Positions 3,263 through 36,032 of a stretch of 64,000 nt of DNA are shown one piece after another. The notes under the pieces were generated by a model. That model ran no database searches and was not told where the DNA came from. It saw only the letters and a list, made by a program, of their open reading frames with translations. The stretch's first letter is position 1. Each line of letters starts with the position of its first letter. The stretch comes from Pirellulales bacterium. GTDB taxonomy: Bacteria; Planctomycetota; Planctomycetia; Pirellulales; Lacipirellulaceae. The position numbers and the translations under genes are program-made. The stretch spans positions 431,237-495,236 of the forward strand of contig CAWJDB010000010.1 in assembly GCA_963841515.1 (NCBI GenBank), given 5' to 3'.

Positions 3263-4027
3263 ATGAGCACCCCTTCACAGCCACTCGCCGATTGCCGCGC
3301 GGTGGTCACCGGCAGCACCAGCGGGATTGGCCGTGCGATCGTCGTCGAGCTGGCCCAAGCCGGCGCAAGCGTGGTCGTCCACGGCCGCAATCGAGAGCGG
3401 GCTGAGAGCGTCTGCGCGTCGCTCCAGAAGATGAAGCGCGAGGCGACGGCGATTGTTACCGACCTGGCCGATGCCAGCGGTTGGGAAGGATTTGTCGACG
3501 GCCTGTGGCGCGAGCGGCCGATCGACGTGTGGGTCAACAACGCCGGCGCCGACGTGCTGACCGGCGACGCGGCAAACTGGACTTTTGAGCGAAAACTCGA
3601 AGCCCTGTGGCGACTCGACGTGGCGGCGACGCTAGGTCTGTCCCGCGCGGTCGGCCGCCGGATGCGCCAGCGCGGGCGCGGCGTGATCATCAACATTGGC
3701 TGGGATCAAGCCGAACTCGGCATGGCGGGCGACAGCGGCGAGATGTTCGCCGCCGCCAAGGGCGCCGTCATGGCGTTTACGCGCAGCCTGGCCAAGTCGC
3801 TGGCCCCGCAAGTGCGCGTCAACTGCCTGGCCCCGGGGTGGATCCGCACCGCGTGGGGCGAGACGGCCTCCGACTATTGGCAACAGCGCGCCACGCGCGA
3901 GTCGCTGCTGGGCCGCTGGGGCGAGCCGGAGGACGTGGCGCGGGCAGCGTGCTTCCTCGCGTCGCCGGCGGCGGCGTTTATCACCGGTCAAATCCTCGAC
4001 GTCAACGGCGGCCGCGCCGGTCCCTGA
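3263..4027 (+). CDS. Short-chain dehydrogenase/reductase (SDR) family oxidoreductase
   Basis: TGSTSGIGRA Rossmann motif, NNAG motif and C-terminal ITGQILDVNGG. The expected YxxxK reads FAAAK. Confidence 0.7.
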   Translation: MSTPSQPLADCRAVVTGSTSGIGRAIVVELAQAGASVVVHGRNRERAESVCASLQKMKREATAIVTDLADASGWEGFVDGLWRERPIDVWVNNAGADVLTGDAANWTFERKLEALWRLDVAATLGLSRAVGRRMRQRGRGVIINIGWDQAELGMAGDSGEMFAAAKGAVMAFTRSLAKSLAPQVRVNCLAPGWIRTAWGETASDYWQQRATRESLLGRWGEPEDVARAACFLASPAAAFITGQILDVNGGRAGP

Positions 4028-4140
4028 ACAATCCCTCCGGCCCCCTCGCCCTGGCGGGGAGGGTTGGGGAGGGGGGTTGAAGTGGACGGCGATTCGCCAC
4101 TTCTACACCCCTCCCCTAGCCCCTCCCCATCGAGGGGAGG
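4028..4140. repeat. Two REP-like GC-rich palindromic units (CCCTCCCC..GGGGAGGG..GGGGAGGGGGG)
   Basis: 4030..4078 is ~85% identical to 28905..28958. The GGGGAGGGGGG core is shared with the REP copies that flank the RAYT gene. Confidence 0.6.
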
Positions 4141-4160
4141 GCAGCGGAGGATCGAACATC

Positions 4161-5594
4161 ATGCCACGCGAGCACATCCATTTCGTCACCGGCCGATTGG
4201 CGGAGCATGCGCTCAAGTCCATCGTGGCGCCGCTGGCGGCACAGGCGGGGTTCGACTACACGATCGACGTGCTGCCGATCACCGTGGCCGCACTGATGAC
4301 GCCGGAGTGGATCGCCCGCCACTGCACGTGCCGCCGCGGCGACCACGCGGATCATTCTGCCGGGCTACTGCGAGGGCGACCTGGCGCCGCTCGGCGGCGA
4401 CCACGTCCGCCCGGTCGAGCGCGGCCCGCGCGACTTGCGGCAGCTTGCCGGCCTATTTCCTCCGCGAGCCGCCGCCGCAGGATTACGGCGCCTACGACAT
4501 CGAGATCATCGCCGAGATCAACCACTGCCCCGGTTGCCGCTGGACGAGATCCTGCGCCAGGCCGACGCAGCTGGCGCGCGACGGCGCCGATGTCATCGAC
4601 GTCGGCTGCGATCCGGGCGACGCCATGGCCGGCGTCGGCGACGCCGTGACGGCGCTGCGCGACGCGGGCATCCGCGTGTCGATCGACAGCCTCAACCGCG
4701 CGAGATCGCGCCGGCCGTGGCCGCCGGCGCCGAGCTGGTGCTGAGCGTCAACAGCACGAACCGCGACGCGGCGCCCGATTGGGGCGTCGAAGTGGTCGCC
4801 ATGCCCGACGTGCCGGCCACGCTCGAGGGACTCGACGAGACGATCGACTATCTGGCCCGCGCCGGGCGTGCCGCTGCGGATCGATCCGATCCTCGAGCCG
4901 ATCGGCTTCGGCTTCGCCGCCAGCTTGGGCCGCTACCTCGAAGTCCGCCGCCGCTATCCCGACGCCGAAATGATGATGGGCATCGGCAACCTCACCGAGC
5001 TGACCGACGTCGACTCGGCCGGCGTCAACGTGCTGCTGCTTGGCTTCTGCCAGGAGCTGTGGCATCCGCAGCGTGCTGACGACGCAGGTGATCAATTGGG
5101 CCCGCACCAGCGTCCGGGAGTGCGACGTCGCCCGCCGGCTGATGCATCATGCTGATCACGCACCGCGTGCTGCCCAAGCACCTCGAGCCGCGGCTGGTGA
5201 TGCTGCGCGACGCCGAAGTCGCAGGAAACGCCGATCGAAGCGCTCGCCGAGCTGGCCTGCGCAGATTCGAGATCCGAATTACCGCATCTTCGCCGCAGAC
5301 GGCGAGGTGCACCTGGTCGGCGCCGGCCTGCACCTGCACGACCGCGATCCGTTCGTCGTCATGGAACAGCTTCGCCGCGCCGGTCCCGACGACGGCCTGC
5401 CGAAAAATCTCGACCCGGGGCACGCCTTCTACCTCGGCTACGAAATGTGCAAGGCCGCCACCGCGCTCACCTTGGGCAAGACCTACCGCCAGGACGAAGC
5501 GCTCGACTGGGGTTTTGCGACGCAACCCGAGTCGCGCCACTACCTGAAGCGCTCGCGCGCCGTCGACCGGCGCGGGGAGCGACGATACGATTAA
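4161..5594 (+). pseudogene. Dihydropteroate-synthase-like pterin-binding protein (methanopterin-pathway DHPS-like); frame broken at least 4 times
   Basis: DHPS-like segments ([32 protein letters not shown]) are spread over six overlapping ORFs in all three + frames, starting at MPREHIHFVTG. Confidence 0.5.
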
Positions 5595-5597
5595 CGG

Positions 5598-7013
5598 ATG
5601 ACCGTCCCCCCTGCCCTGCCCTTGGTCGAACCACTGCCGGCGAGCCTCTCCGCCGTCGAAGCCTTCCAGCGACTTGCCAATCGGCCGCACGTCGTGTTCT
5701 TCGACAGCGCGGCGCATGACCCACGGGTAGGCCGGTACTCGTTCGTGGCGGCCGATCCGTTTCAGTGGATTGAGCGTGCGGCGACGGACGGCGACGCCTT
5801 GGAGGCTGTCGAGCAGCTGTGTCGGCGCTATGTCGGCGACCCGCGCCAAGATTTGCCGCCGTTCCAGGGCGGCGTCGCCGGGTTGTTTGGCTACGAGCTG
5901 GGGCGCACGCTCGAACCAGTTCCGGCGGCCCGCTACGACGACCTCCCGACGCCCGCGGTCGCGGTGGGCGCCTACGACGTCGTGGCGGCGTTCGACCACG
6001 CCGTCGGGCGAGGTTGGCTCATTTCGCAAGGCTTTCCCGAGACCGATCCAGACGCCCGCCGCAATCGGGCCACGGCCCGCCTTGCCGAGTTTCGATCGCT
6101 GCTTGCCGCGCCGCCAGGCGGATGTTGCATGGCGCCTCGCGAAATGCACGCTCCGCGACGACTTCGCGAATCTGGCGCCCCAACATGAAGTTGGCCCGCC
6201 CGGTGTTACCAGCAATCTTTCCGCCGACGACTACCGCCAGATGGTGCGCCGAGGCGTCGAGTATGTCCACGCCGGCGACGTGTTCCAGGTCAATCTGGCT
6301 CAGCGACTGCTCGCCAAGGCCCAAACAAATTCGGTAGACCTCTACCTGCACCTGCGCAATCGCAATCCGGCCCCTTATGCCGGCTATCTCGACCTCGGTC
6401 CTACGCAGGTCTGCAGCGCCTCGCCCGAGTGCTTCCTGACCGTCCGCGACCGTCACGTCGAGACGCGTCCGATCAAGGGCACCCGCGGCCGGTCGCTGCG
6501 CCCCGAGGCCGACCTGTTCGCCGGCGACGACTTGACGCTCAGCGAAAAGGACCGTGCCGAAAATGTGATGATCGTCGACCTGCTGCGCAACGACCTGTCG
6601 CGCGTGTGCCGGCCAGAGAGCGTGCACGTCTCGCAGCTATGCCGGCTGGAATCGTATGCCTTCGTGCAGCACCTGGTGTCGGTGGTGCGCGGCGAGTTGA
6701 AACCCGAGTGCACGCCGCTCGACCTCTTGCGGGCCAGCTTCCCGGCGGTTCGGTCACCGGGGCGCCCAAGGTGCGGGCCATGGAGATCATCGCCGAGCTG
6801 GAGCCCACCGCCCGCGGGGCCTACTGCGGCTCGCTCGCCTACATCGGCTTTGACGGCCCGATGGACGCGAGTATTCTCATCAGAACGATCACCGCCGGCC
6901 GCGGCTGGTGGCAACTCCCAGTCGGCGGCGGCATCGTCGCCCAGAGCGACCCCGACGAGGAGTACCGCGAAACCTGGCACAAGGCGCGGGGATTGCTGAA
7001 GGCCATCAGTTGA
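5598..7013 (+). pseudogene. pabB: Aminodeoxychorismate/anthranilate synthase component I, frameshifted twice
   Basis: The N-terminal Anth_synt_I_N-like part is in 5598..6188. The chorismate-binding motifs (GDVFQVNLAQR, IKGTRGR, DRAENVMIVDLLRNDL) are in 5770..6999. The C-terminal GGSVTGAPK...GGGIVAQSDP is in 6429..7013. Confidence 0.65.
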
Positions 7014-7017
7014 AAAC

Positions 7018-7133
7018 CCAATGAACAAATCCCAATGACCAAGCACCAATGACCAAGCACCAATGACCAATGACGGAGGAAAGACTGCTCTCGGCCAATT
7101 GGTCATTGGTGCTTGGTCATTGGTCATTACTCC
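7018..7133. repeat. Long imperfect inverted repeat (hairpin) made of CCAATGACCAAGCA units, lower GC, between pabB and pabA
   Basis: ccaatgaccaagcaccaatgaccaagcaccaatgaccaatgac ... ggtcattggtgcttggtcattggtcatt. Confidence 0.6.
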
Positions 7134-7136
7134 GCC

Positions 7137-7803
7137 ATGATTCTTCTCATCGACAACTACGACAGCTTTGTCCATAACCTCGCCCGGTATTTCCAGCGGC
7201 TGGGGCAGGAGACGGTCGTGCGTGCGCAACGACGCGGCGACGGCCGCTGACGTGCGCCGGCTGGCGCCGCAGGCGATCGTGCTGTCCCCCGGGCCGTGTA
7301 CGCCCGCCGAAGCGGGCTGCTCCGTGGATGTCGTGCGACAGCTTGCTGACCGAGTCCCCATCTTAGGCGTGTGCCTTGGCCATCAGGCAATCGCGGCCGC
7401 GTTGGGCGCCCGGATTGTCCGCGCCGCGGAACCGCGACACGGCCGCACCTCGCTGGTCGAACACTCGCCGTCCGGACTGTTCGCCGGCCTGCCGACGCCG
7501 CTGGTCGCGTGCCGATATCATTCGCTAGTCGTCGACGAGGCCACGCTCCCTCGGGAGTTGCGTCCCACGGCCCACGCCGACGACGGCGAGCTGATGGCGT
7601 TCGAGCACGAAACCCTCCCGGTGTTTGGCGTGCAATTTCATCCCGAGGCGACGCTCACCGAGCATGGCTACGCGCTGCTGGCGAATTTCTTGCGCCTGGC
7701 CGGCGTAGCCATTAGCGGCGATCCAGCGGCGCTCGCGGCGTCGGAAAATCGCACTCCGCCCGCATTTGAGTTCGCCGAGCCTGCGCTGCCAGTCACATTT
7801 TGA
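7137..7803 (+). pseudogene. pabA: Glutamine amidotransferase (PabA/TrpG, component II); frameshift near 7230
   Basis: N-terminus MILLIDNYDSFVHNL starts at ATG 7137 in frame 0. The rest (GVCLGHQ, FGVQFHPE) is ORF 7168..7803 in frame +1. Confidence 0.65.
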
Positions 7804-8441
7804 GAGAATTCGCCGCCATGTCTGCAGCCGACGCGCGGCCGCCTGAGCTAGGCGCCGACGGCCGCATATTGGAAGGCATTGTCACGACGCTCAACGTCGA
7901 CGGCAGCGCCAACATTGCTCCCATGGGGCCGATCGTCGACGAGCGCCTGGACTGGCTCTGGCTGCGCCCGTTTCGGACTTCGAGGACATTTGAAAATTTG
8001 ACTCGTCACGCTCAGGGCGTGTTTCATGTCACGGACGACGTCATGCTGCTGGCCCAAGCAGCGATTGGACAGCCGGATCCGCTGCCCGCGTCTATGTCCG
8101 CCAAGAAAATCGAGGGCGTGATCCTTGTCAACGCGTGCCGATGGTTTGAGTTTGAAGTCGAATGGATCGACCCTCACGAAGAGCGTTTCGCCATCTTGGC
8201 GCGCGTCGTCGACCGCGGCGTGCGGCGTGATTTCTTTGGCTTCAACCGCGCCAAACATGCCGTCGTCGAAGCAGCCATTCTGGCTACCCGCGTACATCTG
8301 CTGGACCGGCACGAAATCATGGCCGAATTCGATCGGCTTGCCGTCCCCGTCGCCAAAACGGGCGCCGCCGCCGAACGCGAAGCGTTCGAATTCCTGCGCC
8401 GCTATGTTACATCCCAGATAGAGCAATCTCGCCCAGGCTAA
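7800..8441 (+). CDS. DUF447-like protein; from memory this family co-occurs with methanopterin-linked C1 genes
   Basis: 213-aa intact ORF. The family assignment comes from memory of sequence character only. Confidence 0.35.
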   Translation: MREFAAMSAADARPPELGADGRILEGIVTTLNVDGSANIAPMGPIVDERLDWLWLRPFRTSRTFENLTRHAQGVFHVTDDVMLLAQAAIGQPDPLPASMSAKKIEGVILVNACRWFEFEVEWIDPHEERFAILARVVDRGVRRDFFGFNRAKHAVVEAAILATRVHLLDRHEIMAEFDRLAVPVAKTGAAAEREAFEFLRRYVTSQIEQSRPG

Positions 8442-8550
8442 TCCGCGCCGCGTCGTGTTAGCCGGCATCGTCTCGATGCCGCGTCCCGACGAGCGATCGC
8501 GCCGCCGCGACCGCGCCGGCCAACTCATCCCCCAAGTTGCAATTCGCCAC

Positions 8551-9510
8551 ATGCCCGTTTTTGTCTCCGCTCCCAGCCGCCTCCACTTTGGCTTGCTCCG
8601 CTTCGAGCAGCCCACAGGCCCCAGCTTCGGCGGCCTGGGCATGATGATCGACCGGCCGCGCCTTGAAGTCGCGGTGTCGGCGGCCGACCAGTGGAGCGTC
8701 GACGGCTTCGCCGCCGCTCGCGCCCGCGAAGCCGCCGAGCGGGCCCTCGCGTCGACCCCGGCCGCCCACAAGCCCTCGGCGCTGGCCCTGCGAGTGACCG
8801 CCGACGCCTCGCTGCACCACGGGCTGGGCGGAGGAACTCAACTGGCGCTGGCCATCGCGGCCGGCGTCCGCGCGCTCGTGGGCCTGCCTCCCGGCGACGC
8901 CGCCACGCTGGCCGCCGCCGTCGGCCGCGGCCAGCGCAGCGCTGTGGGAAGTTACGGCTTCGTCCACGGCGGGCTCATTTGGGAGCTCGGCCGTCAACCC
9001 AACGAGCCGTTGTCCGCGCTGGGCGCCCGCATCGACGACGCCGCCCGATTGGCGGTGCGTACTGGTGGACTCGCCGGACGACTGCGGTCTGAGCGGTCAA
9101 CTCGAACGCGACGCCTTTCAAGCGCTTCGCCCGATGCCGGCCGCGACGACCGAGCGACTGCGGGCGCTGGCGGAAGACGAAATCCTCCCCGCCGCCCGCC
9201 GCGCCGACCTCGATGCCTTCGGCGAAGGCGTGTACCGGTATGGCCGCCTCTCGGGCGAGCAGTTCGCCGCCGTGCAGGGCGGCGCCTTCGCGTCGCCTCA
9301 GATCGGCCAGCGCGTGGCGGCGATTCGCGCCCTGGGCGTGCGCGGCACGGGACAATCGTCGTGGGGGCCGACAGTGTTTGCCCTCGTCGCGAGCCAGGCA
9401 GAGGCCGACGCGCTGATGCAGGAACTGAAAGGGCACCCCGCGACCGCCGGCTGCATCATCGACGCAGCCCGGCCCGACAACCACGGCGCGCCTTTCAGCA
9501 TCAGGCCCGC
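8551..9510 (+). pseudogene. beta-ribofuranosylaminobenzene 5'-phosphate synthase-like (MptG, GHMP-kinase fold); frameshift near 9055
   Basis: MPVFVSAPSRLHFGLL and GLGGGTQLALAIAAG (GHMP-like) are in frame 8455. The continuation DSPDDCGLSGQLERDAF...GTGQSSWGPTVFAL is in frame 9065. Confidence 0.5.
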
Positions 9511-9571
9511 CCCGAGGGTAATCGCTTTTCAACCGGGCCGCCAAACCGCCGTCCCCGAAAAGCCAAAGAAT

Positions 9572-9605
9572 GTTGCTGAAAATGGCCGCGCACTTTGCTA
9601 CGGTG
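9572..9605. repeat. 32-bp repeat GTTGCTGAAAATGGCCGCRCACTYTGCTA (partner at 16529..16560)
   Basis: Near-identical direct repeat that brackets the mobile-element-rich segment. Confidence 0.55.
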
Positions 9606-9668
9606 GGGAAAGGGGGGGAAAGGGGGGGGGAGGGGGGAAAGGGGACATTCTACTTTATTGCCCCCTTC
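9600..9668. repeat. REP-like element copy a (..GGGGGGGAGGGGGGAAAGGGGACATTCTAC)
   Basis: G-rich run ending in GGGGACATTCTAC. It is inverted relative to copies b and c and sits at the 3' side of the RAYT gene. Confidence 0.6.
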
Positions 9669-9859
9669 CGCGGCCGACCCCGCGGCCGCAGCGTGAATTC
9701 CAGCCCGAGCTTCCCTGCCGTCCGCCGCTGCCACCTCGGCGCACCAAAAGGACTGCCCCGCACCACGCTCGTCCGCAGCGCCGCCAGTTCCGCCTCGGTC
9801 TGCGGCTGGTTCACCCACTGGAGCCAGTCGGCGCCGCGGGGAACCGGCCCCGGGTCCAG

Positions 9860-10340
9860 TCGCGGCGCCTCGACGCCGGCCGGCAGCACGACCAATCGAC
9901 GACCACGGCCAACGCTCCGCCTTCCGCACGCCCAGCGACTTGGCCCGCACGGGATTGCGCTCCACGTAGCGCAACACCGCCAGCAAATGTTCGTCGCGCT
10001 GAATGGGAAACGCCTTGAACCGACCCTGCCACACATGGCCGCTCGTGCCGTAATGCCGATGGTAGCGCCGCACGTGGCTGGTCAAGAGCCACTGCATCCA
10101 GCGGCTCAAGTCGCCGCCCTCGCGCGGCCACAGCACCAGGTGAAAATGATTGGGCATCAGCGAGTAGCCGACGATGCGCATCGAGACGTTCTTGACCCGT
10201 TCGCCGGCCTCGACCATCAGCTTCAGAAAGGCGGCGTAGTCGTCGTCTTTGTGAAACACCTCCTGCCGACCGTTGCCGCGGTTCAGGACGTGATAACAGT
10301 AATTGCCGGCCGAAGCCCGAGCCGTGCGAGGCATGCCCAC
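9860..10340 (-). CDS. REP-associated tyrosine transposase (RAYT; IS200/IS605 TnpA-like HuH Y1 transposase)
   Basis: YHVLNRGNGRQEVF...VGYSLMPNHFHLVLWP...HVWQGRFKAFPIQRDEHLLAVLRYVERNPVRA. The ORF reads on to 9501, but the domain ends at ~160 aa. Confidence 0.75.
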
Positions 10341-10962: not shown

Positions 10963-12488
10963 GTAACCGTTCACGCCCTGGGGAGCAGTGACGGGGCTTT
11001 TTGGCGTGCGAAGTGGGCGTGCACGGCGGCGGCGACGAATTCGAAGGCGTTGCGTTTCTGTTGACGGCAGGTTTCGATGACGGTGAGCATCGTTTCGGCA
11101 AAGCGGCTGCCGCCGGCGCTTTGCGTGCCAAACGAGAGTTTCCGCCAGATCACGGCGTGGCGCAAGGCGCGCTCGCTGGCGTTGTTGGTCGGTTCGACGC
11201 CCTCCACGCGGACGAACGTCCACAGCCAATCGCGATGGTCATAGAGTTCGCGACACATCCCCGCGATCGATCGGTTACCGCTGCTGGCCCCGCGCAGCAG
11301 CACGCGTTCGACCTCGCGGCGGACCGGCGCCATGCGGCGGATGAAGGCCGTCCGCGTGATCGTGCCGTCGCGATAATTGGCCCAATGCTCGAACAGCTTG
11401 CCGGCGGCGCGGCGGAGGTCGTACCCGAGCCGTTTGGCCTGACCGTCGCCGCCGTCGATCAGGGCTTGAAAATCGCGTTTCAAATGCGCCCAACACCATT
11501 GCAAACGGCCGGTGTGCCAGTACATTTTGGCTCGATCGCAGGTCACCACGCCGCCGAACTCCGCCGTGAGCAGATCGACCAGCGCCGTCGCCTCGCGCAT
11601 AGCGCGGACCGCAAACACGGTGAAGGTCCGGGCCACGAACGTCCACAGCCACGCCTTCCTGTTTTGTTCCTTGGTCGCCGTTTCGTCGATGCTCAGTCGG
11701 TCCTGCGTCGGCAGTTGAGCGGCCAACTCGTCGTATGCCGGCCGCAGGGCCGCCGTCGCCTGATGTTGCATCTTCACCGTCAGCGCCGGGCAGCACGGCT
11801 GACCCGCGAGCGCCGAGAAACTCGGCCGTCCGCCGCTTGCTTTGTCGATAGTAGGCCATCAACAAGGCGACCAGCGCCGTCAGCCGCGGACCCGACTGGC
11901 CCTGCGGCACGCCGGCCGGCAACTCCGCGCACGTCGTTTCGCCGCAGCACGGGCACGCCAGCCGATGTCGCCGGTACTCGGTGACGTGCGGCTTGATCTC
12001 GGGCAGTTCCCACACCTGGTGACGCAGCGGGTCGGGATCGCGGCCGGTCAGCTTGCCGCCGCAGCGCCGGCACTCCGCCGGCTTGAGTTCTTGCACCTCG
12101 TCGCAGTCTTCGCTCGGAACGAGCGGCCGCTCGTGTTTCGCGTGGCCCGGTTGACCGCCGCGGCGCTTCGTCGATTTCCGCTTCCGCGGCGGCGGGGCCG
12201 GCCGGGCGTGCGGATGCTGCGTGCTCGGTGGCAGCGAGGAGTTTTGCGGCGTCTTGCCCTTCACTTGTCGTCGCAGGTCGTCCAACTCCGCTCGCAGGTC
12301 GTTCAGCTCCGCCCGCAGCCCGGCGATCTCCGCCAGCAAGACACGGATGATCTCCTGCCCTCCGGCGACTGGCGAGCGATGACGTTATCAGAAACGTTGC
12401 ACCACATGCCCCATGGTGTCGCCGAAAAAGCCAAGGCAAGTAAAGATCAATTTCCCTTCCAAAAGCTCCCCAGGGTGTGAACGGTTAC
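10963..12488 (-). mobile_element. IS66-family insertion sequence (single-ORF type)
   Basis: 24-bp terminal inverted repeats GTAACCGTTCACGCCCTGGGGAGC / GCTCCCCAGGGTGTGAACGGTTAC starting with GTAA. An IS66 transposase lies inside. Confidence 0.7.
10971..12339 (-). pseudogene. IS66-family transposase, split into two frames near 11780
   Basis: The N-terminal zinc-finger/leucine-zipper part is in 11275..12339. The C-terminal DDE part (WAHLKRDF...NNASERALRH) is in 10971..11777. Confidence 0.7.
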
Positions 12489-12721: not shown

Positions 12722-13715
12722 TGCTCAGTAGAAAACGTGCCTGTGCTAGCTAAACAACGGTTTTTGGCGGTTCGTATTGAGATGGATGAAGACAAGCAAG
12801 AGTCCGAAGCGGGTGTTGGTCGAGGCGCTCAAGGTCGCCGAGGCGGCGCTGCCGGCGTATTCGCACCGATTCAGCCCGAAGAAGTTTACGCTGCACCAAC
12901 TGTTCGCCTGCTTGGTGCTGAAGGACTTCTACAACCTGACCTATCGCGGCACGGTCGGCCTGCTGGCGGACGGCGACTCGCTGTCCGGGGCGATCGGCCT
13001 CAAGGAGGTCCCTCACTGGACCACGCTGCAGAAGGCGGCCGACCGGCTGCTCTTGGCCCGTTCGTTTCGGCGGCTGCTCTCGGCGACGGTCGAGCGGAGC
13101 CAGCAGGCGAAGATCGTGGGCCGGCGACGCGTTCGCCTGGCGGCGATGGACACCAGCGGCTTCGAGGCGCAGCACACCAGTCGGTACTACGCCGCACCGG
13201 CGAAAAATGACGGGAAACGACGGGCGGAAACGCCGGGTGACGTATCGACGCTATCCGAAGCTGGGCTTGGCCTGCGACGCGGCGAGCCACTTCATCTTGG
13301 CGGCCCGCACAAGCCAGGGACCGCAACCCGACTTCGGCGACTTCGCCCCGTTGTATGCGGCGCAGGCGCGCATGGGATTGACAACGATCGCGGCGGACGC
13401 CGGCTTCGACAGCGAAGCGAACCACGAGTTGGCTCGCGACGAGTTGGGGATCCAATCGCTGATTCCGGCGACTCATGGCCGACCCGCTCGCGGCGAGCCG
13501 ACAGGTCGGTATCGGAAACAGATGAAGCGACATCTTGGTCAAAGCCGTTACGGCCAGCGCTGGCAGGTCGAAACCGTCAACTCGATGATCAAACGCCTGA
13601 CCGGAGAGGTCGTCAACGCCCGCACCTACTGGCGCCGCTGTCGACTCCTCCTGCTGAAAACCCTCACGCACAACATCAGCATCCTTAGACAACAGCTAGG
13701 TTTTCTACTGAGCAT
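12722..13715 (+). mobile_element. IS4/IS5-superfamily (DDE_Tnp_1) insertion sequence
   Basis: 15-bp terminal IRs TGCTCAGTAGAAAAC / GTTTTCTACTGAGCA, flanked by an 8-bp direct repeat GTGGCGTC (12714..12721 and 13716..13723). Confidence 0.65.
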
Positions 13716-14847: not shown

Positions 14848-16363
14848 GCTCGAATGGCACTCGGATAGCTCTAACGTCGGTGCATCAAACGTTTTCGTGC
14901 GAGGCGTCGGGGTTCGCGGAGGTGTTTGTACTGTTTAGGCCTGCGTTTGACGAGCCGCGGCTCAATTCGGTCGGGTCGATCGGCGACGCGGTGGCTGCCG
15001 ATCATCCAGAGGAGAGCTGCGTAGAGCCGATCAGCATTGCGCGAGTCGGCGATCACCAGGCCCAAGAACGCGTTGATTGACTGCATCGCTCCTTTGAAGC
15101 TGAGCTGATGCGGCGCAACGCCTGCGGACAGGGCCGCTTCCAGCATCAAGCCGCGGATCAAGTTGTAGGCTAACAGGTGCGCATAGAACTCTTTGCGCAC
15201 GGTACTCGGCTTCTTGCAGCGTAAGCGCTCCATTTGCATGTGCGTCTTGAGCTTCGCAGGTGCAGTTCGGCGTCCCAACGACGGCGATAGAGGTTGGCCA
15301 GGTCTTCCGCCGGATAGGCGATCGGATCCACCAGCGTGGTCGCCAGCAGGATGACCCGCGGGCGAAAACCTGGCTGGTCGACCCGATAACGCAGATGACG
15401 AATCCCAGCGAGCGACGGCAACCGCTCGTACGTCGGCCGATCCATCCAGGCAGGGCCTGCGTCGGCTTCTGATAGACACGTCAACTGGTCGGCGTCGCCC
15501 GAGCTTCAGTCCGGTGCGAAAGTCGATCTTGCGTGAGCTGGCCTGGGCGCACCAGGTCGACGCGGGCGTCTCCGCAGCAACGCAAAGTCCCAGAAGGACG
15601 CATAGTATCGATCGGCCAGCGCCACTTCGCCCGGCCGGCAAACTATCGAGCAAGCGGCGAAACAAGTTGTTTTCGCCGGTCTGCTTCCCTTCGTAGGGGC
15701 CGATCGCCACCTCGACGACCGCTCCTACGGCCAGCGAAAAGACGACCACGATCCCGCGATCGGAAAGCCGATGGCTCTCCGCTTGAATGGACTGTTGCGG
15801 ATATTCGCGCTGGTTGTCCGGCGTGTCGGCCATCGATGATGGTCGAGCCGTCGACGACCTTGACCGCTCGGCCGAGCCACTGCCAAGCCCGGTCGGCACT
15901 ACAACGCCAGTTCCTGGCCGGTGGAACGCACCAATCGACAAGAGTTGCTCGGGCAGCCGCTCGCGCGCTTCGCAGTAACTGTTGGTGTCGGGATGGCACG
16001 GCGGGAGGTTCTGCGAGCCGCCAGAAGTTCAGCTTGGCAACAGCTTCACGGCACGAATGGTCTGCACCACGACCTGGCTGAGGAACACCCACAGCGTGAC
16101 CGCCGGAGAGTAGACCCGTTCTCGAAACTCGTGTTGCAACCGCTGGCAGGCCGCAATTTACACTTTTCCGAAGACAAACGCTCTGCTGAAAAACAACCCC
16201 TGACAGCTATGCGCCAGTCGTGAACCGCGGCGCGCAATTGCGCTTCCGACGCATCCAAACATCTCACAACCTCCTTGTTATGGCTTGGCATCGGTCCACG
16301 CCAACCATCTCAAGGAGGTTGCTTTCAATCCATATCAATTCAACTCACAAACACTTACGACTA
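14848..16363 (-). mobile_element. IS4-family insertion sequence
   Basis: 18-bp terminal IRs CGAATGGCACTCGGATAG (14849..14866) and CTATCCGAGTGCCATTCG (16345..16362). Flanking ~10-bp direct repeat GGACGCAGCT(C). Confidence 0.6.
14871..16090 (-). pseudogene. IS4-family DDE transposase broken into at least three frames
   Basis: Pieces in 14871..15941 (..RIEPRLVKRRPKQYKHLREPR), 15170..15484 (YRRRWDAELHLRS) and 15643..16092 (VVDGSTIIDG). Confidence 0.6.
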
Positions 16364-16936: not shown

Positions 16937-17890
16937 TTACTTGGCCGCCAATTGCGACCCGCCCGTCCGCTTCGCTGGCGCCGGGCCACGCCCTTCGCCG
17001 AGCAGGCCGTAAGCCACGAGCGTCTTGCGGAGCGCCGCCTTCTGCGGCGCATCCAGCGGCGTCATCGGCAGCCGCATCTCGCCGGTGTCGCGGCCGAGCA
17101 TTTTCATCGCCGCCTTGATCGGGATCGGGTTGGTGGACAGACCCGAGCATGTCGCGGCAGAGCGGGAACAGCTTGCGGTGCCACTGCCGCGCCTCGGCCA
17201 GGTTGCCGCGTCGAAGGCCTCGATCAGCGCGATCATGTCCCGCGGCACGATGTTGCCGACGACCGAGATGACGCCCCGGGCGCCGATCGCCATCAGCGGC
17301 AGCGTCAGGCTGTCGTCGCCGCTGAGCACGGTCAGGTTCGGTCGGCGCGATGATCTGCGAGGCCTGGTCCAGCGAGCCGGTGGCTTCCTTGACCATCGTG
17401 ATGTTCGGCAGTTCGGCCAGCCGGGCGATCGTCTCCGGCTCGATGTTCTTGCCGGTGCGGCCGGGGATGTTGTAGACGCAGATGCGGCAGATGCCGACTG
17501 CCTCGGCCAGGCGCTTGAAGTGCTGGTAGAAGCCCTCCTGCGTGGGCTTGTTGTAGTAGGGGGCGACGACCAGCGCCGCGTCGGCGCCGGCCTTCTCGGC
17601 CAACTTCGTCAGCCGCAGGGCCTCGGCCGTGCTGTTGGAGCCGGTGCCGGGCATGACCTTGATGCGCCCGCCGGCGATCTCGCACGACGAACGGCGATCA
17701 CGCGCTCGTGCTCTTCGTGGGTGAGCGTCGGCGACTCGCCGGTCGTGCCGACCGGGCAGAGGCAGGTCGTGCCGGCGGCGACCTGAAACTCGATCTGCTC
17801 GCGGAAGCTTCGTAGTCGACTTCGCCGTTCTTGAACGGCGTGACCATGCGCCACCGACAGGCCGGCAAATGCTTCGCCTTTGGTCGTCAT
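16937..17890 (-). pseudogene. dapA: 4-hydroxy-tetrahydrodipicolinate synthase, spread over three frames
   Basis: N-terminus [11 protein letters not shown]...[17 protein letters not shown] in 17609..18181. Middle [20 protein letters not shown]...NIPGRTG in 16872..18044. C-terminus [23 protein letters not shown] in 16937..17329. Confidence 0.7.
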
Positions 17891-18084
17891 GCGGGCAGGC
17901 TCCTGATGCTCGCGGGGGACGAGCCGAGTGCGCGGGACGACTGCAATTTGCGTGACGTGGCGGAAGATCGGCGTACGCACGCGACAATTGGCGCCACGGC
18001 GAGGATGTCGTCGCGCTGGCAATAGCCGGCCCGTGCGATGCCATCGGCGGACGTCAGGGGATGTCACCGATATGCCGTTACGTG

Positions 18085-18870
<786 letters not shown>

Positions 18871-28904: not shown

Positions 28905-28958
28905 CCCTTCCGGCTCCCTCCCCCTCCGCGGGGAGGGCTGGGGAGGGGGGAAATTGTG
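28905..28958. repeat. REP-like element (CCCTCCCCCTCCGCGGGGAGGGCTGGGGAGGGGGG)
   Basis: Homologous to 4030..4078. Confidence 0.6.
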
Positions 28959-32950: not shown

Positions 32951-33028
32951 GCGGCGGTACGGGAGTCGAACCCGTGACAGCCAGGTTACGAGCCTGGTGC
33001 TCTATCCACTGAGCTAACCTTGGTGGCG
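32951..33028 (-). tRNA. tRNA-Thr(CGT)-like; acceptor stem imperfect (possible pseudo-tRNA)
   Basis: D arm GCTC/GAGC, anticodon arm CCAGG-CTCGTAA-CCTGG, T arm ACGGG-TTCGACT-CCCGT. Only 3-4 of 7 acceptor pairs. Confidence 0.4.
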
Positions 33029-33147
33029 GACGACAATCGCCTTTGCTCGATCCCATGTCCGGAACGCGCGACGCTAACCATGTCACTGAAGCGTGCGCAC
33101 CGCTGGGCCCGGCAACCCTCGACCTTGCTTGAAGCTGCTTGAAAAAA

Positions 33148-33218
33148 GACGCTGACAGGAGTCGAACCTGTTTCAAGCTGCTTTGTAGGCAGCCGCCTCG
33201 CCGTCAGGCTCCAGCGTC
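33148..33218 (-). tRNA. tRNA with anticodon ACA (Cys-type, unusual A34)
   Basis: Perfect acceptor GACGCTG/CAGCGTC, anticodon arm GCTGC-CTACAAA-GCAGC, T arm ACAGG-TTCGACT-CCTGT. Confidence 0.55.
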
Positions 33219-33226
33219 AATAAAAT

Positions 33227-33298
33227 GCCCTCGCCAGGAATCGAACCTGGTCTTCAACCTTCGCACGGTTGCGTGCTGGTCCGGCACACTCCGAGGAC
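33227..33298 (-). tRNA. tRNA-Arg(GCG)
   Basis: Acceptor GTCCTCG/CGAGGGC, D stem GTGT/GCAC, anticodon arm CAACC-GTGCGAA-GGTTG, T loop TTCGATT. Confidence 0.6.
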
Positions 33299-33303
33299 TC
33301 AGT

Positions 33304-33375
33304 ACCCAGTAGAGGAATTGAACCCCTTCTTCGACGTTCGAAGCGTCGCGTGCGATTCCGGCACACTCACCGGGC
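33304..33375 (-). tRNA. tRNA-Arg(TCG)
   Basis: Anticodon arm CGACG-CTTCGAA-CGTCG, T loop TTCAATT, acceptor GCCCGGT/ACTGGGT. Confidence 0.6.
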
Positions 33376-33381
33376 GAAAGC

Positions 33382-33453
33382 GTCTCGACTAGGATTCGAA
33401 CCTAGACCCGCCGCTTAGGACGCGGCTGTGCGTTCCCGTAACGCTTCCGAGAC
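33382..33453 (-). tRNA. tRNA-Arg(CCT)
   Basis: Acceptor GTCTCGG/TCGAGAC, D stem GCGT/ACGC, anticodon arm GCCGC-GTCCTAA-GCGGC, T arm CTAGG-TTCGAAT-CCTAG. Confidence 0.65.
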
Positions 33454-33459
33454 TCAAGG

Positions 33460-33530
33460 GCCGGCGATAGGATTCGAACCTACATTGGGCTCATTACAAA
33501 TGAGCTGCTTCCCCATCAAGCCACGCCGGC
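33460..33530 (-). tRNA. tRNA-Thr(TGT)
   Basis: Perfect cloverleaf: acceptor GCCGGCG/CGCCGGC, D GCTT/AAGC, anticodon GCTCA-TTTGTAA-TGAGC, T GTAGG-TTCGAAT-CCTAT. Confidence 0.8.
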
Positions 33531-33539
33531 ATAGGAAGC

Positions 33540-33608
33540 AGGCCCGCCAGGATTTGAACCCGGTGCGTCAGTTTTGGAGGCTGACTGCTCTCCCAGGAGC
33601 ACGGACCT
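33540..33608 (-). tRNA. tRNA-like gene with 9-nt anticodon loop (CCTCCAAAA); identity unclear
   Basis: Acceptor AGGTCCG/CGGGCCT, D arm GCTC-CTGGGA-GAGC, stem GTCAG/CTGAC, T arm CCGGG-TTCAAAT-CCTGG. Confidence 0.4.
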
Positions 33609-33646
33609 GTAAAAGCACCCGGGCGGCCGACCCGGCGCCGATCAAA

Positions 33647-34237
33647 TCACTTCTGCAATTCCACGTTCCAGTACGCCTCGCTGATGAACTTCGACCAACT
33701 CTCAAGACGAACCTGCTGATCGGCGTACACCGGCCTCCACGTTGGACACGTCGGCGCCTTCTTGAGGTTCATGTCCGCCTGCTTCGGCGTCCGGTCGGCC
33801 TTACGCTTATTGCAGGCAATGCAGGCGAGAACGCAGTTCGTCCAGCTCGAAACGACTCCCCGAGCGCGAGGAACCACGTGGTCGATCGTGAGCTCTTCGC
33901 CGCCCGGGTTGACGCCGCAATACTGGTACTGAAAGCGATCTCGCTTATAAATGTTCCGCCGACCGAACGTCACCGCTCTGATCGGCAATCGATCGAAACC
34001 CGTGCGCGTGATGACTTCCGGCACGCGCAACCGGAAGTTAACGCCGCTCATGAACGGAGCTCCGTCCCGCGGTCGCAGCCGCGACCAATCGTCCCACGAG
34101 AACGTCTGGTAATCGGCCGCGTCGACGACGCGCAGCATCTTTCCACAACAGCACGAGCGCACGCGCTGTGGTCGCGACGTGCACGGGCTGCCAGTTCTTG
34201 TTCAGAACGAGCACAGGTTGTTGTAGTGAAGTCATAG
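33647..34237 (-). pseudogene. HNH endonuclease embedded in the tRNA array; frameshift near 34140
   Basis: N-terminus MTSLQQPVLVLNKNWQPVHVATTARALVLL in 34038..34334. HNH core YQYCGV...LTIDHVVPRARGG..CVLACIACNKRKADR in 33647..34162. Confidence 0.65.
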
Positions 34238-34249
34238 CTACTCCCATGC

Positions 34250-34337
34250 GGAATGGGCAGGATTCGAACCTGCAAGGCTGTTGAAGGCTCGGCCGGCTTC
34301 CAAGTGGGGTTTCGTCGCCAAGTCGATTTGCCATTCC
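34250..34337 (-). tRNA. Class II (long variable arm, 88 nt) tRNA; anticodon not resolved (Leu/Ser-type)
   Basis: Perfect acceptor GGAATGG/CCATTCC, T arm GCAGG-TTCGAAT-CCTGC. Confidence 0.5.
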
Positions 34338-34348
34338 GTGTTGTCAGC

Positions 34349-34419
34349 CGCCCGCCGATGATTCGAACATCGCCTCACGATTTAGAAGATCGTCGTGCGT
34401 TCCACCACACTCGCGAGCG
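34349..34419 (-). tRNA. tRNA-Arg(TCT)
   Basis: Acceptor CGCTCGC/GCGGGCG, D GTGT/GCAC, anticodon ACGAT-CTTCTAA-ATCGT, T CGATG-TTCGAAT-CATCG. Confidence 0.75.
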
Positions 34420-34423
34420 CAGG

Positions 34424-34496
34424 GTGACCGAGCGGACTCGAACCGCCTCATACCTGGTTCACAGCCAGGCCCCTCGACCACTTCGGGATCGGTCAC
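34424..34496 (-). tRNA. tRNA-His(GTG)
   Basis: Acceptor GTGACCG/CGGTCAC, discriminator C, anticodon CCTGG-CTGTGAA-CCAGG, T loop TTCGAGT. Confidence 0.7.
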
Positions 34497-34499
34497 AGC

Positions 34500-34584
34500 G
34501 GAAGGCATGGGATTTGAACCCACACGGCTATTACGCCGCACGGTTTAGCAAACCGGCCCGACAAACCGTATTCGGCTACCTTCC
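34500..34584 (-). tRNA. tRNA-Ser(GCT), class II
   Basis: 85 nt. Acceptor GGAAGGT/GCCTTCC, anticodon CGGT-TTGCTAA-ACCG, variable arm CGGC-GTAATA-GCCG, T GTGGG-TTCAAAT-CCCAT. Confidence 0.7.
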
Positions 34585-34592
34585 GTTCGAGT

Positions 34593-34662
34593 GGAGCGCC
34601 GGGGAATCGAACCCCGATTTCCTGAGTGCAAACCAGGCGTCGTCCCGTTGGACCAGCGTCCC
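34593..34662 (-). tRNA. tRNA-Ala(TGC) with G3:U70
   Basis: Anticodon CCTGG-TTTGCAC-TCAGG, T CGGGG-TTCGATT-CCCCG. Short D loop and one acceptor mismatch. Confidence 0.55.
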
Positions 34663-34675
34663 GTACTTTTGAGTG

Positions 34676-34746
34676 GAGGATACCGGTCTCGAACCGGTGA
34701 CCTACAGACTGCCAGGCGAGTCGCTCACCCAACTGAGCTAATCCCC
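34676..34746 (-). tRNA. tRNA-like with 8-nt anticodon loop CGCCTGGC (GGC/Ala-like?)
   Basis: Acceptor GGGGATT/TATCCTC, D GCTC-AGTTGGGT-GAGC, stem GACT/AGTC, T ACCGG-TTCGAGA-CCGGT. Confidence 0.4.
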
Positions 34747-34751
34747 CGACA

Positions 34752-34821
34752 GGCCCAAGCGAGAATCGAACTCGCACCACCGCACTACCAATGCGGTGCT
34801 CTGCCACTGAGCTATCAGGCC
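34752..34821 (-). tRNA. tRNA-Thr(GGT)
   Basis: D GCTC-AGTGGCA-GAGC, anticodon CCGCA-TTGGTAG-TGCGG, T GCGAG-TTCGATT-CTCGC. Confidence 0.75.
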
Positions 34822-34825
34822 GTGG

Positions 34826-34894
34826 GGGGACATGGGAGTCGAACCCAATGTTTCAAGCTTATGAGGCTTCCGTGAAACCGTTTCACTCGTCCCC
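34826..34894 (-). tRNA. tRNA-Met(CAT)-type
   Basis: Acceptor GGGGACG/TGTCCCC, anticodon AAGC-CTCATAA-GCTT, T loop TTCGACT. The D arm is short. Confidence 0.55.
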
Positions 34895-34900
34895 GTCAGT

Positions 34901-34971
34901 AGTCCCTGCTGGAATCGAACCAGCTGTCTTCTCCGTGTCATGGAGACGCCGTGCCGGTGGGCCAAGGGACT
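34901..34971 (-). tRNA. tRNA-Val(GAC)
   Basis: Perfect acceptor AGTCCCT/AGGGACT, anticodon TCTCC-ATGACAC-GGAGA, T GCTGG-TTCGATT-CCAGC. Confidence 0.75.
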
Positions 34972-34980
34972 ACACGAGTG

Positions 34981-35054
34981 GTCGGGAGAGGGCTTCGAAC
35001 CTCCAAAATCACCGCGCTCTTGACGCGATCGCTTTTCCAGTTTGCGTACCCGAC
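34981..35054 (-). tRNA. tRNA-like; anticodon loop TCAAGAG (AAG with C33?) uncertain
   Basis: Acceptor GTCGGGT/TCCCGAC (6 of 7 pairs), palindromic stem CGCG/CGCG, T loop TTCGAAG. Confidence 0.35.
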
Positions 35055-35060
35055 CGAAGT

Positions 35061-35128
35061 AGCTAGCCCCGGAGTTGAACCGAGCGCGCCGAGCTTATGG
35101 GGCTCAAGTGGGCCAACCTGCGCTAGCA
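35061..35128 (-). tRNA. tRNA(CAT)-like with C33 and a compact D arm
   Basis: Anticodon TGAGC-CCCATAA-GCTCG, variable GCGCG, T CTCGG-TTCAACT-CCGGG, palindromic acceptor GCTAGC. Confidence 0.45.
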
Positions 35129-35130
35129 AT

Positions 35131-35202
35131 GACCCAAGCGGGATTCGAACCCGCGATTCCCGCCTTGAGAGGGCGGCGACTACTCCGCAAGTCCACTGGG
35201 CC
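35131..35202 (-). tRNA. tRNA-Glu(CTC)
   Basis: Acceptor GGCCCAG/TTGGGTC, anticodon CCGCC-CTCTCAA-GGCGG, T GCGGG-TTCGAAT-CCCGC. Confidence 0.7.
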
Positions 35203-35210
35203 ATATAAGT

Positions 35211-35297
35211 GAGACGTGAAGGAATCGAACCTCGCGTCGCCACCCCGCTGTTTAGTGACTCGTGTTCTACAGACACGGCCGCGAGGGAACGCCTCTC
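35211..35297 (-). tRNA. tRNA-Tyr(GTA), class II; acceptor with two mismatches
   Basis: 87 nt. Anticodon CGTGT-CTGTAGA-ACACG. D region TTCCC..GG and T arm GAGG-TTCGATT-CCTTC resemble bacterial tRNA-Tyr. Confidence 0.55.
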
Positions 35298-35304
35298 GTC
35301 GAGT

Positions 35305-35379
35305 GCCAAGGGCGGGAGTCGAGCCCGCGGAGTCACGAAGGTTTGAGCTTCGCCGCTTTCCCTGTTGCGTACCTTGGCA
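35305..35379 (-). tRNA. Class I tRNA with anticodon CAA (Leu codon UUG; unusual because Leu tRNAs are normally class II)
   Basis: Perfect acceptor GCCAAGG/CCTTGGC, anticodon CGAAG-CTCAAAC-CTTCG, T GCGGG-CTCGACT-CCCGC. Confidence 0.55.
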
Positions 35380-35385
35380 GCAAGC

Positions 35386-35459
35386 GCCCCCGACGCGATT
35401 TGAACGCGCGATCTCCTGCGTGACAGGCAGGCGTCCACTCCGGGCTGGACCACGAGGGC
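35386..35459 (-). tRNA. tRNA-Asp(GTC)
   Basis: D GTCC-AGCCCGGAGT-GGAC, anticodon CCTGC-CTGTCAC-GCAGG, T loop TTCAAAT. Confidence 0.75.
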
Positions 35460-35465
35460 AATAGT

Positions 35466-35540
35466 ACCGGCGGCAGGATTCGCTCTCTGCACTGTTCTCG
35501 TTCTAAGCGAGACGCCTCCTTCCGTTGGGCTACGCCGGCT
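35466..35540 (-). tRNA. Class I tRNA-like with anticodon TAG (Leu codon CUA) and an aberrant 10-nt T loop (AGAGCGAATC)
   Basis: Acceptor GCCGGCG/CGCCGGT, anticodon TCTCG-CTTAGAA-CGAGA. Confidence 0.45.
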
Positions 35541-35545
35541 TAAGT

Positions 35546-35617
35546 CGTCCCGAGTGGACTCGAACCACTGATCGTCTCCTTGTAAGGGAGCTGCCTTTGC
35601 CGCTAGGCCACGGGACG
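35546..35617 (-). tRNA. tRNA-Val(TAC)
   Basis: Perfect acceptor CGTCCCG/CGGGACG, anticodon CTCC-CTTACAA-GGAG, T AGTGG-TTCGAGT-CCACT. Confidence 0.7.
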
Positions 35618-35623
35618 TAAGGC

Positions 35624-35709
35624 GGAAGCGGTGAGACTCGAACTCACAAGCGGGTATAAGCCGCCAGCCGTTTTCAAGACGGTTTCCTCAGCCATTCGGA
35701 TCACTTCCG
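35624..35709 (-). tRNA. tRNA-Ser(TGA), class II
   Basis: 86 nt. Acceptor GGAAGTG/CGCTTCC, anticodon CCGT-CTTGAAA-ACGG, T GTGAG-TTCGAGT-CTCAC. Confidence 0.65.
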
Positions 35710-35714
35710 TAAGC

Positions 35715-35785
35715 AGCGGCGGTCGGTATCGAGCCGACTCCAACTGCTTCAAAGGCAGTCATGCTGACCTTTACACCACGCCGCA
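35715..35785 (-). tRNA. tRNA-Gln(TTG)
   Basis: Anticodon ACTGC-CTTTGAA-GCAGT, T GTCGG-CTCGATA-CCGAC, acceptor GCGGCG/CGCCGC. Confidence 0.65.
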
Positions 35786-35792
35786 CCAAACA

Positions 35793-35861
35793 GGCTGAGC
35801 GCCGAATCGAACGGCGTCCGACTGGTTCAGAGCCAGTCGTGCGACCACTACACCAGGGGCC
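35793..35861 (-). tRNA. tRNA-Gln(CTG)-like with defective acceptor stem (pseudo-tRNA or indel error)
   Basis: Anticodon ACTGG-CTCTGAA-CCAGT, T GCCG-TTCGATT-CGGC. The 5' GGCCCCT and 3' GCTCAGCC ends do not pair. Confidence 0.35.
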
Positions 35862-35864
35862 AAT

Positions 35865-35934
35865 ACGGGTGCGCGGAATTGAACCGCGGCTGTCAGTTTG
35901 GAAGACTCGCCGTGCTGCCGCTACACCACACCCG
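35865..35934 (-). tRNA. tRNA-Trp(CCA)-like; the 3' strand of the anticodon stem is scrambled
   Basis: Acceptor GCGGGTG/CACCCGT, D GTGT/GCAC, loop TTCCAAA after GAGTC, T CGCGG-TTCAATT-CCGCG. Confidence 0.4.
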
Positions 35935-35942
35935 CAGAAGCG

Positions 35943-36025: not shown

Positions 36026-36032
36026 ATGAAGC

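Follow-up and report, generated by a model that had tools for sequence, protein, structure and literature searches.

Planctomycetes reportedly carry 'archaeal-like' one-carbon (C1) genes associated with tetrahydromethanopterin (H4MPT) and with methanofuran, a set said to have been described by Chistoserdova et al. in 2004. The occurrence of H4MPT- and methanofuran-linked genes in this phylum is established (PMC5020050), the genes pabB, mptG and orf9 are linked to H4MPT genes (PMC3615186), and the reaction catalyzed by the synthase of beta-ribofuranosylaminobenzene 5'-phosphate (RFAP) has been described (PMC6787355). We analyzed a 64-kb stretch of contig CAWJDB010000010.1 of the Pirellulales bacterium assembly GCA_963841515.1, referred to here as the window, with a guanine-plus-cytosine (GC) content of 59-70% in 2-kb bins. 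The system in question comprises six genes, encoding a short-chain dehydrogenase/reductase (SDR), a pterin-binding protein resembling dihydropteroate synthase (DHPS-like), PabB, PabA, a DUF447 protein and an RFAP-synthase-like, MptG-like protein of the GHMP fold (Table 1). With a probability of roughly 75%, we read this region as a conserved planctomycete operon that supplies the arylamine-pterin portion of a methanopterin-type C1 carrier, in which the apparent frameshifts are consensus errors.

Pfam profiles were searched against the raw open reading frame (ORF) pieces of the window, and the search was repeated on frame-corrected translations. On the raw pieces, the plus strand between 3227 and approximately 9500 yielded the domains adh_short, DUF6513, PterinBD-DUF4346, Anth_synt_I_N with Chorismate_bind, GATase, DUF447_N/C and GHMP_kinases_N/C. 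Both the SDR gene and the DUF447 gene were whole; Anth_synt_I_N and Chorismate_bind were spread over three pieces and GHMP_kinases_N/C over two.

The conservation of this arrangement was evaluated using the DUF447 protein as a query against one genome per prokaryotic species. The 80 loci retrieved were nearly all from planctomycete metagenome-assembled genomes, the best being from Lacipirellulaceae and Bythopirellula at 56-66% identity. On the related contigs, each operon gene is a single uninterrupted ORF and the order is identical, with a pyrroloquinoline quinone (PQQ) beta-propeller gene and an acyltransferase-like gene upstream and dapA and pdxJ downstream. Adjacency at each junction was counted by tblastn across 82 loci. 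In 24 of 26 planctomycete loci, the DHPS-like gene has the SDR gene as its immediate upstream neighbor; the DHPS-like gene adjoins pabB in 29 of 30, pabB adjoins pabA in 36 of 40, pabA adjoins the DUF447 gene in 42 of 43, and the GHMP gene follows the DUF447 gene in 61 of 75. The SDR and DUF447 products of the window each occur as an exact copy once in a collection of 15 billion proteins, and the nearest homologue of the DUF447 protein among 5.8 billion proteins is 74% identical. By protein similarity, then, this copy of the operon belongs to a rather divergent Pirellulales lineage that has no close relatives in the databases.

The corrected DHPS-like protein matched the full DUF6513 profile (79.3 bits) and exceeded the cut-off for Pterin_bind (32 bits against 25.5); a partial match to DUF4346, at 23.3 bits, was under the cut-off of that model. 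The protein thus has an N-terminal DUF6513, a central pterin-binding barrel and a C-terminal DUF4346, and the orthologue at one related locus (L081) likewise carries DUF6513 and Pterin_bind. The sole NCBIfam match was TIGR00284, the archaeal 'dihydropteroate synthase-like' family, at 160.7 bits, short of the 256.65 required for membership; intact orthologues scored 159.7-178.9, likewise below this cut-off. No NCBIfam match to bacterial FolP was found for the window protein, and the similarity to bacterial DHPS/Sul3 in the PDB was marginal (E of about 0.01). The orthologues scored at most 27 bits on bacterial DHPS, with weak TIGR01496 matches in two of them.

These scores bear on whether the operon makes folate or a variant of it, with the DHPS-like protein as an unusual dihydropteroate synthase acting directly on p-aminobenzoate (pABA) and the GHMP protein as a kinase. 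PabA and PabB beside a pterin-binding protein is indeed the layout of bacterial folate operons (the Bacillus subtilis pab-sul operon, cited in PMC8305020), and a folate product would also fit the occurrence of Pterin_bind in FolP, the weak TIGR01496 matches and the position of all methanopterin-family scores below cut-off. However, no kinase model recognizes the window copy of the GHMP protein, whose matches are confined to RFAP synthase and ForT. The DHPS-like protein carries the DUF6513 and DUF4346 extensions and scores far higher on TIGR00284 than its orthologues do on bacterial DHPS, and the structural relatives of the DUF447 protein include MTH_863, a methanogen locus tag. Folate synthesis by this operon appears quite improbable.

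The GHMP protein matched only the RFAP-synthase models of NCBIfam, in both cases short of the membership score (NF040726, 113.7 bits against 328; TIGR00144, 95.2 against 113.5). Because intact orthologues score alike on TIGR00144 (91-114.3 bits, with two, at 113.5 and 114.3, at or just above the cut-off), the sub-cut-off score is, judging from the profiles, a property of the lineage and not frameshift damage. The translation contains a glycine-rich phosphate-binding loop (HHGLGGGTQ; motif LHHGLGGGTQLALA). In RFAP synthases, the loop that binds phosphoribosyl pyrophosphate (PRPP) has a PX3GLGSSAA-like motif, the N-terminal pABA-site residues of the methanogen enzyme MTH0830 are D19 and R26, and the non-methanogen groups 2 and 3 show the conserved regions less clearly (PMC6787355).

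In the PDB, the only relatives of the GHMP protein were the ForT-PRPP complex 6yqq, which was the best match (4.5e-12), and 8ap0 and 8aoz, with chains named beta-RFAP synthase; the alignment to these structures covers most of the protein in two segments. ForT is encoded in nucleoside-antibiotic clusters and its substrate is a pyrazole dicarboxylate. Going by the best structural match, one could assign the GHMP enzyme to the C-glycoside synthases, as a relative of ForT in function, and expect the product of the operon to be a C-nucleoside or some other natural product of the arylamine-ribose type; the RFAP-synthase family does have members with other functions (PMC8305020). Yet the operon is kept beside housekeeping genes across the whole phylum, it contains no other nucleoside-antibiotic genes, and the GHMP gene is linked to those for a pterin-binding protein and DUF447. 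We give a natural product of this kind hardly any probability.

The NCBIfam TrpE/PabB models all scored below cut-off on the corrected PabB (TIGR00553 pabB, 318.4 bits against 328.4), and by these scores the assignment of the pair as PabB/PabA or TrpE/TrpG was ambiguous. The lysine of a PIKGT motif is typical of PabB (K274 of the Escherichia coli protein), and alanine, as in PIAGT, is typical of TrpE. The corrected protein contains RPIKGTRGR, with the lysine, and is paired with a class-I amidotransferase partner, as in aminodeoxychorismate synthase; TrpE/TrpG was rejected on the basis of this lysine. The partner scored 219.9 bits on TIGR00566 (trpG_papA), above the cut-off of 121.05, and its translation shows the cysteine motif GVCLGHQ and the His-x-Glu motif FHPEA.

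The DUF447 protein (PF04289/PF20766) is a member of its family by both domains, with 71.6 bits for DUF447_N and 40.7 for DUF447_C (cut-offs of 24 and 24.8). Its relatives in the PDB were 3b5m (3.9e-36), 2iml, 2ptf (MTH_863) and 2nr4; we presume, independently of the structure search, that 2iml and 2nr4 are from methanopterin-using archaea. DUF447 is putatively the Orf9/MfnF family, an equation for which a literature search gave no confirmation. On this putative link, the gene is more likely a methanofuran-branch gene of the Orf9/MfnF type than a methanopterin gene. Orf9 is a homologue of the methanofuran enzyme MfnF (PMC8141765).

The SDR gave only generic SDR/FabG matches in NCBIfam, all below cut-off; for the pteridine reductase PRK09135, the score was 127 bits against 288. 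The known dihydromethanopterin reductases are AfpA and DmrA, and neither is recognized in planctomycetes (PMC5020050). Because of this gap and of the position of the SDR gene directly upstream of the DHPS-like gene, the SDR is a candidate for the missing planctomycete reductase of dihydromethanopterin, or of a precursor dihydropterin, as a pteridine-reductase-like, non-orthologous replacement for AfpA/DmrA. We put this forward tentatively and consider it rather unlikely. Documenting SDR, DHPS-like, PabB, PabA, DUF447 and MptG as a tightly conserved unit does make the SDR a reasonable candidate for such a step.

Based on these assignments, a route can be proposed. From their families and motifs, PabA and PabB would convert chorismate and glutamine to 4-amino-4-deoxychorismate, from which a PabC lyase encoded elsewhere would generate pABA. 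The MptG-like enzyme would then combine pABA with PRPP, yielding RFAP, CO2 and pyrophosphate. This step is suggested by the family together with the linkage to PabAB, the latter being what points to pABA as the substrate. The DUF6513/pterin-binding protein would, by its family and conserved linkage, join this arylamine to 6-hydroxymethyl-dihydropterin diphosphate. The SDR would probably, if speculatively, reduce the pterin or its side chain, and the DUF447 protein would be an Orf9/MfnF-type partner serving the methanofuran branch.

An earlier sequence-only reading of this DNA had listed the six genes in the above order on the plus strand and had proposed synthesis of a methanopterin-type cofactor. 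The Pfam matches on the ORF pieces bear out the list and the order. Profile searches, which it had called for, place the GHMP and DHPS-like proteins in methanopterin families (RFAP synthase and TIGR00284) and not in folate families, at scores below the curated cut-offs. The cofactor proposal itself stands in part: the family matches, the PIKGT lysine of PabB, the phylum-wide operon and the genes established in planctomycetes (PMC5020050) speak for it, but the sub-cut-off scores do not, and DUF447 likelier belongs to the methanofuran branch.

Several observations count against a methanopterin-type product. Every methanopterin-specific model gave a score under its curated cut-off. To our knowledge, the cofactor has not been chemically characterized in planctomycetes. 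ForT, which appears among the PDB matches of the GHMP protein, is an RFAP-synthase homologue that probably does not make RFAP, and the same probably holds for the haloarchaeal homologue HVO_2628 (PMC8305020). The scanned proteins of the window included no product of pabC, fae, mch, mtd or fhc, and the Fae, MCH, Mtd and FTR families had no match. Nor are H4MPT-dependent enzymes among the conserved neighbors of the operon in the 80 related loci, which are MgtE, DUF1501, kinases, Omp85 and similar proteins.

Frameshifts were called by aligning the orthologues from Bythopirellula (locus L005) to the window DNA using a dynamic program that allows 2-nt and 4-nt codons. As an independent check, a codon-usage Viterbi hidden Markov model (HMM) that uses no homology was applied in place of a simple sliding-window GC3 frame plot, which was too noisy. 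The alignments covered nine genes, namely the six of the operon, the upstream PQQ propeller gene, and dapA and pdxJ as control genes, and revealed 29 frameshifts in total, including one in the propeller gene (the others are given by gene in Table 1). Those in the DHPS-like gene, 8 insertions and 2 deletions, lie near 4323, 4444, 4533, 4570, 4695, 4864, 5060, 5154, 5221 and 5258, and the HMM recovered the same 10 switches to within a few bases. Across the window, the HMM called 43 same-strand frame switches, of which several are ordinary gene boundaries and approximately 15 are further candidates inside other genes. The best Pfam stretch spans the switch in four of these: FAD_oxidored (~25206), a response-regulator receiver (~60700), the IS66 DDE domain (~11811) and DDE_Tnp_1 (~13229). 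A switch at approximately 62922 probably falls inside the HD_5 domain, the coordinates being approximate, and one at ~45965 in the sodium:solute symporter (SSF) gene is plausible.

The sequence-only reading had stated that every cluster gene except those for the SDR and DUF447 is broken, and the frameshift-aware alignment agrees. Its count of one to four frameshifts per gene fits pabB, pabA and the GHMP gene and is wrong for the DHPS-like gene. Heavy frameshifting also proved not to be a property of the cluster, as dapA, pdxJ, the propeller gene and further genes of the window are affected. Programmed frameshifting and transcriptional slippage were considered and rejected, since a single gene holds 10 events that go in both directions and lack slippery motifs.

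We conclude with high confidence that the frameshifts are residual single-base consensus or assembly errors and not gene decay, because the mutational spectrum, the absence of stop codons, the conservation of the corrected proteins, the dependence of density on GC and the source of the contig together point this way. Each of the 29 lesions involves a single base, and +1 insertions account for 23 of them (p = 0.002 for a 50:50 expectation). Bacterial pseudogenes are deletion-biased and have indels of many sizes. Across the nine genes, no in-frame stop was found. Neutral decay at 5-10 substitutions per indel predicts 3.9-7.7 stops (P(0) = 0.02-0.0004), given that 2.4-2.7% of random substitutions in these genes create one. 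After correction, identity to the best orthologues was 80% for DapA (loci L002, L006, L007 and L019), 77% for PdxJ (L007) and 77% for the DHPS-like protein (L002); DapA and PdxJ are the best conserved of the protein set although their genes are among the worst hit. With their frames corrected, the DHPS-like and GHMP proteins reach NCBIfam scores in the range of their intact orthologues.

Frameshifts were denser where local GC was higher, with 0.84 per kb for a GC of at least 60% and 3.0 per kb for a GC of at least 72% (Spearman 0.43). No enrichment of homopolymers was detected at the 29 sites (mean longest run of 2.2 against a background of 2.3), and among the 4- to 6-mers around them nothing survived multiple testing. 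The source contig belongs to a metagenome-assembled genome, and its span of 657,511 bp suggests a long-read metagenome assembly. The errors probably fall in patches where coverage or polishing was poor, and the organism very probably has intact genes.

The mixed profile expected of pseudogenes, in which nonsense codons occur, indels are multi-base and biased toward deletion, conservation is relaxed and essential genes are spared, was not observed. Such a profile would accompany the alternative that insertion sequence (IS)-associated genome decay has made real multi-hit pseudogenes of the cofactor operon, dapA and pdxJ, for which one may cite the IS200-like/Y1, IS66 and DDE transposase genes that fill approximately 7.5 kb directly downstream of the operon and the clustering of the frameshifts in particular genes. 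But the predominance of insertions is opposite to the deletion bias of pseudogenes, nonsense codons are absent where approximately 4-8 would be expected, and the hardest-hit genes, which include the essential dapA, are yet the best conserved once corrected, at 77-80%. Transposases and many unrelated genes are likewise frameshifted, and the density follows GC. Genuine decay is improbable on this evidence.

Some points nevertheless tell against consensus errors. The density is very uneven, with 10 frameshifts in ~0.94 kb, 14 in ~1.5 kb and none in several genes of 1.5-1.9 kb; this is not predicted by a simple uniform error model, and the patchiness is only partly explained. The GC trend is partly inflated, as no frameshift can register in non-coding stretches of low GC. 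IS elements, several of which lie in the window, accompany real genome decay too, and the errors are deduced from the assembled sequence. If consensus error is nonetheless the cause, as we hold, the coding sequence of the contig carries single-base indels at approximately 0.8 per kb, rising to approximately 10 per kb in GC-rich patches. Without frame correction or re-polishing of the reads, pseudogene calls, gene-length statistics and metabolic reconstruction from this assembly will then be wrong.

The window differs from its relatives in the DNA downstream of the operon. Instead of lying directly behind the GHMP gene, dapA and pdxJ are found at 17.0-18.8 kb, separated from the mptG-like gene by an IS-rich insertion of approximately 7.5 kb (9.5-17 kb) that is absent from the syntenic Bythopirellula and Lacipirellulaceae loci. 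The GHMP frame has no stop where the orthologues end, 3-16 residues past the N-x-G-A motif, and continues for approximately 170 codons to 10018; this extension, 9490-10018, runs antisense to the Y1 transposase gene into the mobile DNA. The cause would be either replacement of the stop codon by the insertion or a further indel at this point.

Table 1. Features of the operon, the downstream insertion and the control genes (window coordinates; frameshifts from orthologue alignment).
Feature	Coordinates	Strand	Remarks
SDR, classical short-chain dehydrogenase/reductase	3263-4027	+	254 aa from ATG 3263; adh_short_C2 1.8e-44; intact, 0 frameshifts; first gene of the conserved unit
DHPS-like pterin-binding protein	4161-5594	+	DUF6513, Pterin_bind and DUF4346 tail; 10 frameshifts
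PabB-type aminodeoxychorismate synthase component I	5598-7013	+	Anth_synt_I_N, Chorismate_bind; 2 frameshifts, near 6110-6165 and 6737
PabA/TrpG-type glutamine amidotransferase	7137-7803	+	Pfam GATase 5.9e-48; 1 frameshift (insertion) near 7221
DUF447 protein	7818-8441	+	207 aa; DUF447_N and DUF447_C; intact, 0 frameshifts
RFAP-synthase-like GHMP-fold protein (MptG-like)	8551-~9500	+	GHMP_kinases_N/C; 1 frameshift near 9037-9061
IS200-like Y1 transposase	9501-10340	-	within insertion
IS66 element	10971-12357	-	within insertion; frameshifted
DDE_Tnp_1 element	12777-13688	+	within insertion; frameshifted
Further transposase-like fragments	14943-15897		within insertion
dapA (dihydrodipicolinate synthase)	17003-17929	-	control gene; 7 single-base frameshifts; L081 orthologue is PF00701 DHDPS
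pdxJ (pyridoxine 5'-phosphate synthase)	18080-18804	-	control gene; 7 single-base frameshifts; L081 orthologue is PF03740 PdxJ

Hairpins rich in GC, with the form CCCTCCCC-N-GGGGAGGG, are present at 4040-4150, in the spacer between the SDR and DHPS-like genes, and at one other site, 28916-28950. They are possibly elements of the repetitive extragenic palindrome (REP) type related to the Y1 (RAYT-like) transposase. Upstream of the operon, the segment 116-2998 encodes an acyltransferase-like protein, with only weak matches to a FabD-like fold, and a membrane-anchored PQQ beta-propeller protein of 520-560 aa; these two genes are conserved upstream neighbors in 14 and 17 related loci, respectively.

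Elsewhere in the window, the minus strand carries a dense tRNA array at 32956-37070, in which ARAGORN identified 29 tRNA genes, for most amino acids, within approximately 4 kb; Rfam adds one at 32956-33019. The array has a lower GC of 57-61% and is interrupted by an HNH endonuclease ORF (33647-34162). The 'anticodon' of the tRNA at 34673-34747 is 2 nt long, perhaps through a further indel error. A cluster resembling type IV pilus and type II secretion systems occupies 49835-64000 and encodes a secretin, PilM-like and GspF-like proteins, a protein or proteins with STAS, MshEN and T2SSE ATPase domains, a response-regulator histidine kinase, prepilin-type proteins and an HD-GYP-type protein, with frame switches in the receiver and, probably, the HD domain. 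Two paralogous GH99-like/DUF5010-like proteins, encoded on opposite strands at 38861-39700 and 47191-48021, flank dockerin- or PEP-CTERM-like secreted proteins and the sodium:solute symporter.

Among known systems, the bacterial pab-folP operons of folate synthesis resemble the window in having PabA/PabB genes beside that for a pterin-binding TIM-barrel protein. They differ in that the window lacks a FolP-type DHPS score and has an RFAP-synthase-like gene, DUF447 and the DUF6513/DUF4346 extensions. Of the solved structures, those of ForT-type C-glycoside synthases (6yqq, 8ap0 and 8aoz), enzymes that use PRPP, come nearest to the GHMP protein; their context is different, as the window combines pABA synthesis with a pterin-binding protein. 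Archaeal MptG (MJ1427, AF2089 and MTH0830) and TIGR00284 are the only profile families matched by the GHMP and DHPS-like proteins, but the window scores are far below the cut-offs of the archaeal equivalogs (113.7 against 328 and 160.7 against 256.65). The archaeal route to pABA is a different one, and archaea are not known to link mptG or DHPS-like genes to PabAB.

The set for dephospho-H4MPT and methylofuran of Methylobacterium (Methylorubrum) extorquens comprises mptG (orf4), pabB, orf9, orf19/20 and dmrA. In methylotrophs, pabB, mptG and orf9 are associated with H4MPT genes (PMC3615186), and the logic of feeding pABA to RFAP synthase (PMC6787355) is shared with the window. In Proteobacteria, however, these genes sit among fae, mch and fhc, whereas the window has a separate six-gene unit headed by a conserved SDR gene, in a phylum where no DmrA or AfpA is recognized (PMC5020050).

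The planctomycete islands of H4MPT- and methanofuran-linked C1 genes (PMC5020050) agree with the window in phylum, in gene order and in families, namely mptG-like, pabAB, orf9/DUF447-type (the DUF447-orf9 link being putative) and DHPS-like. The window copy differs from them in its divergent lineage, the 7.5-kb IS-rich insertion, the assembly-type indels and the absence of the C1-transfer enzymes from the window. The kind of cluster is already known, being the form that the 'archaeal-like' cofactor genes take in planctomycetes, and what is new is one more divergent lineage, of Pirellulales, among the planctomycetes with a methanopterin-type cofactor operon.

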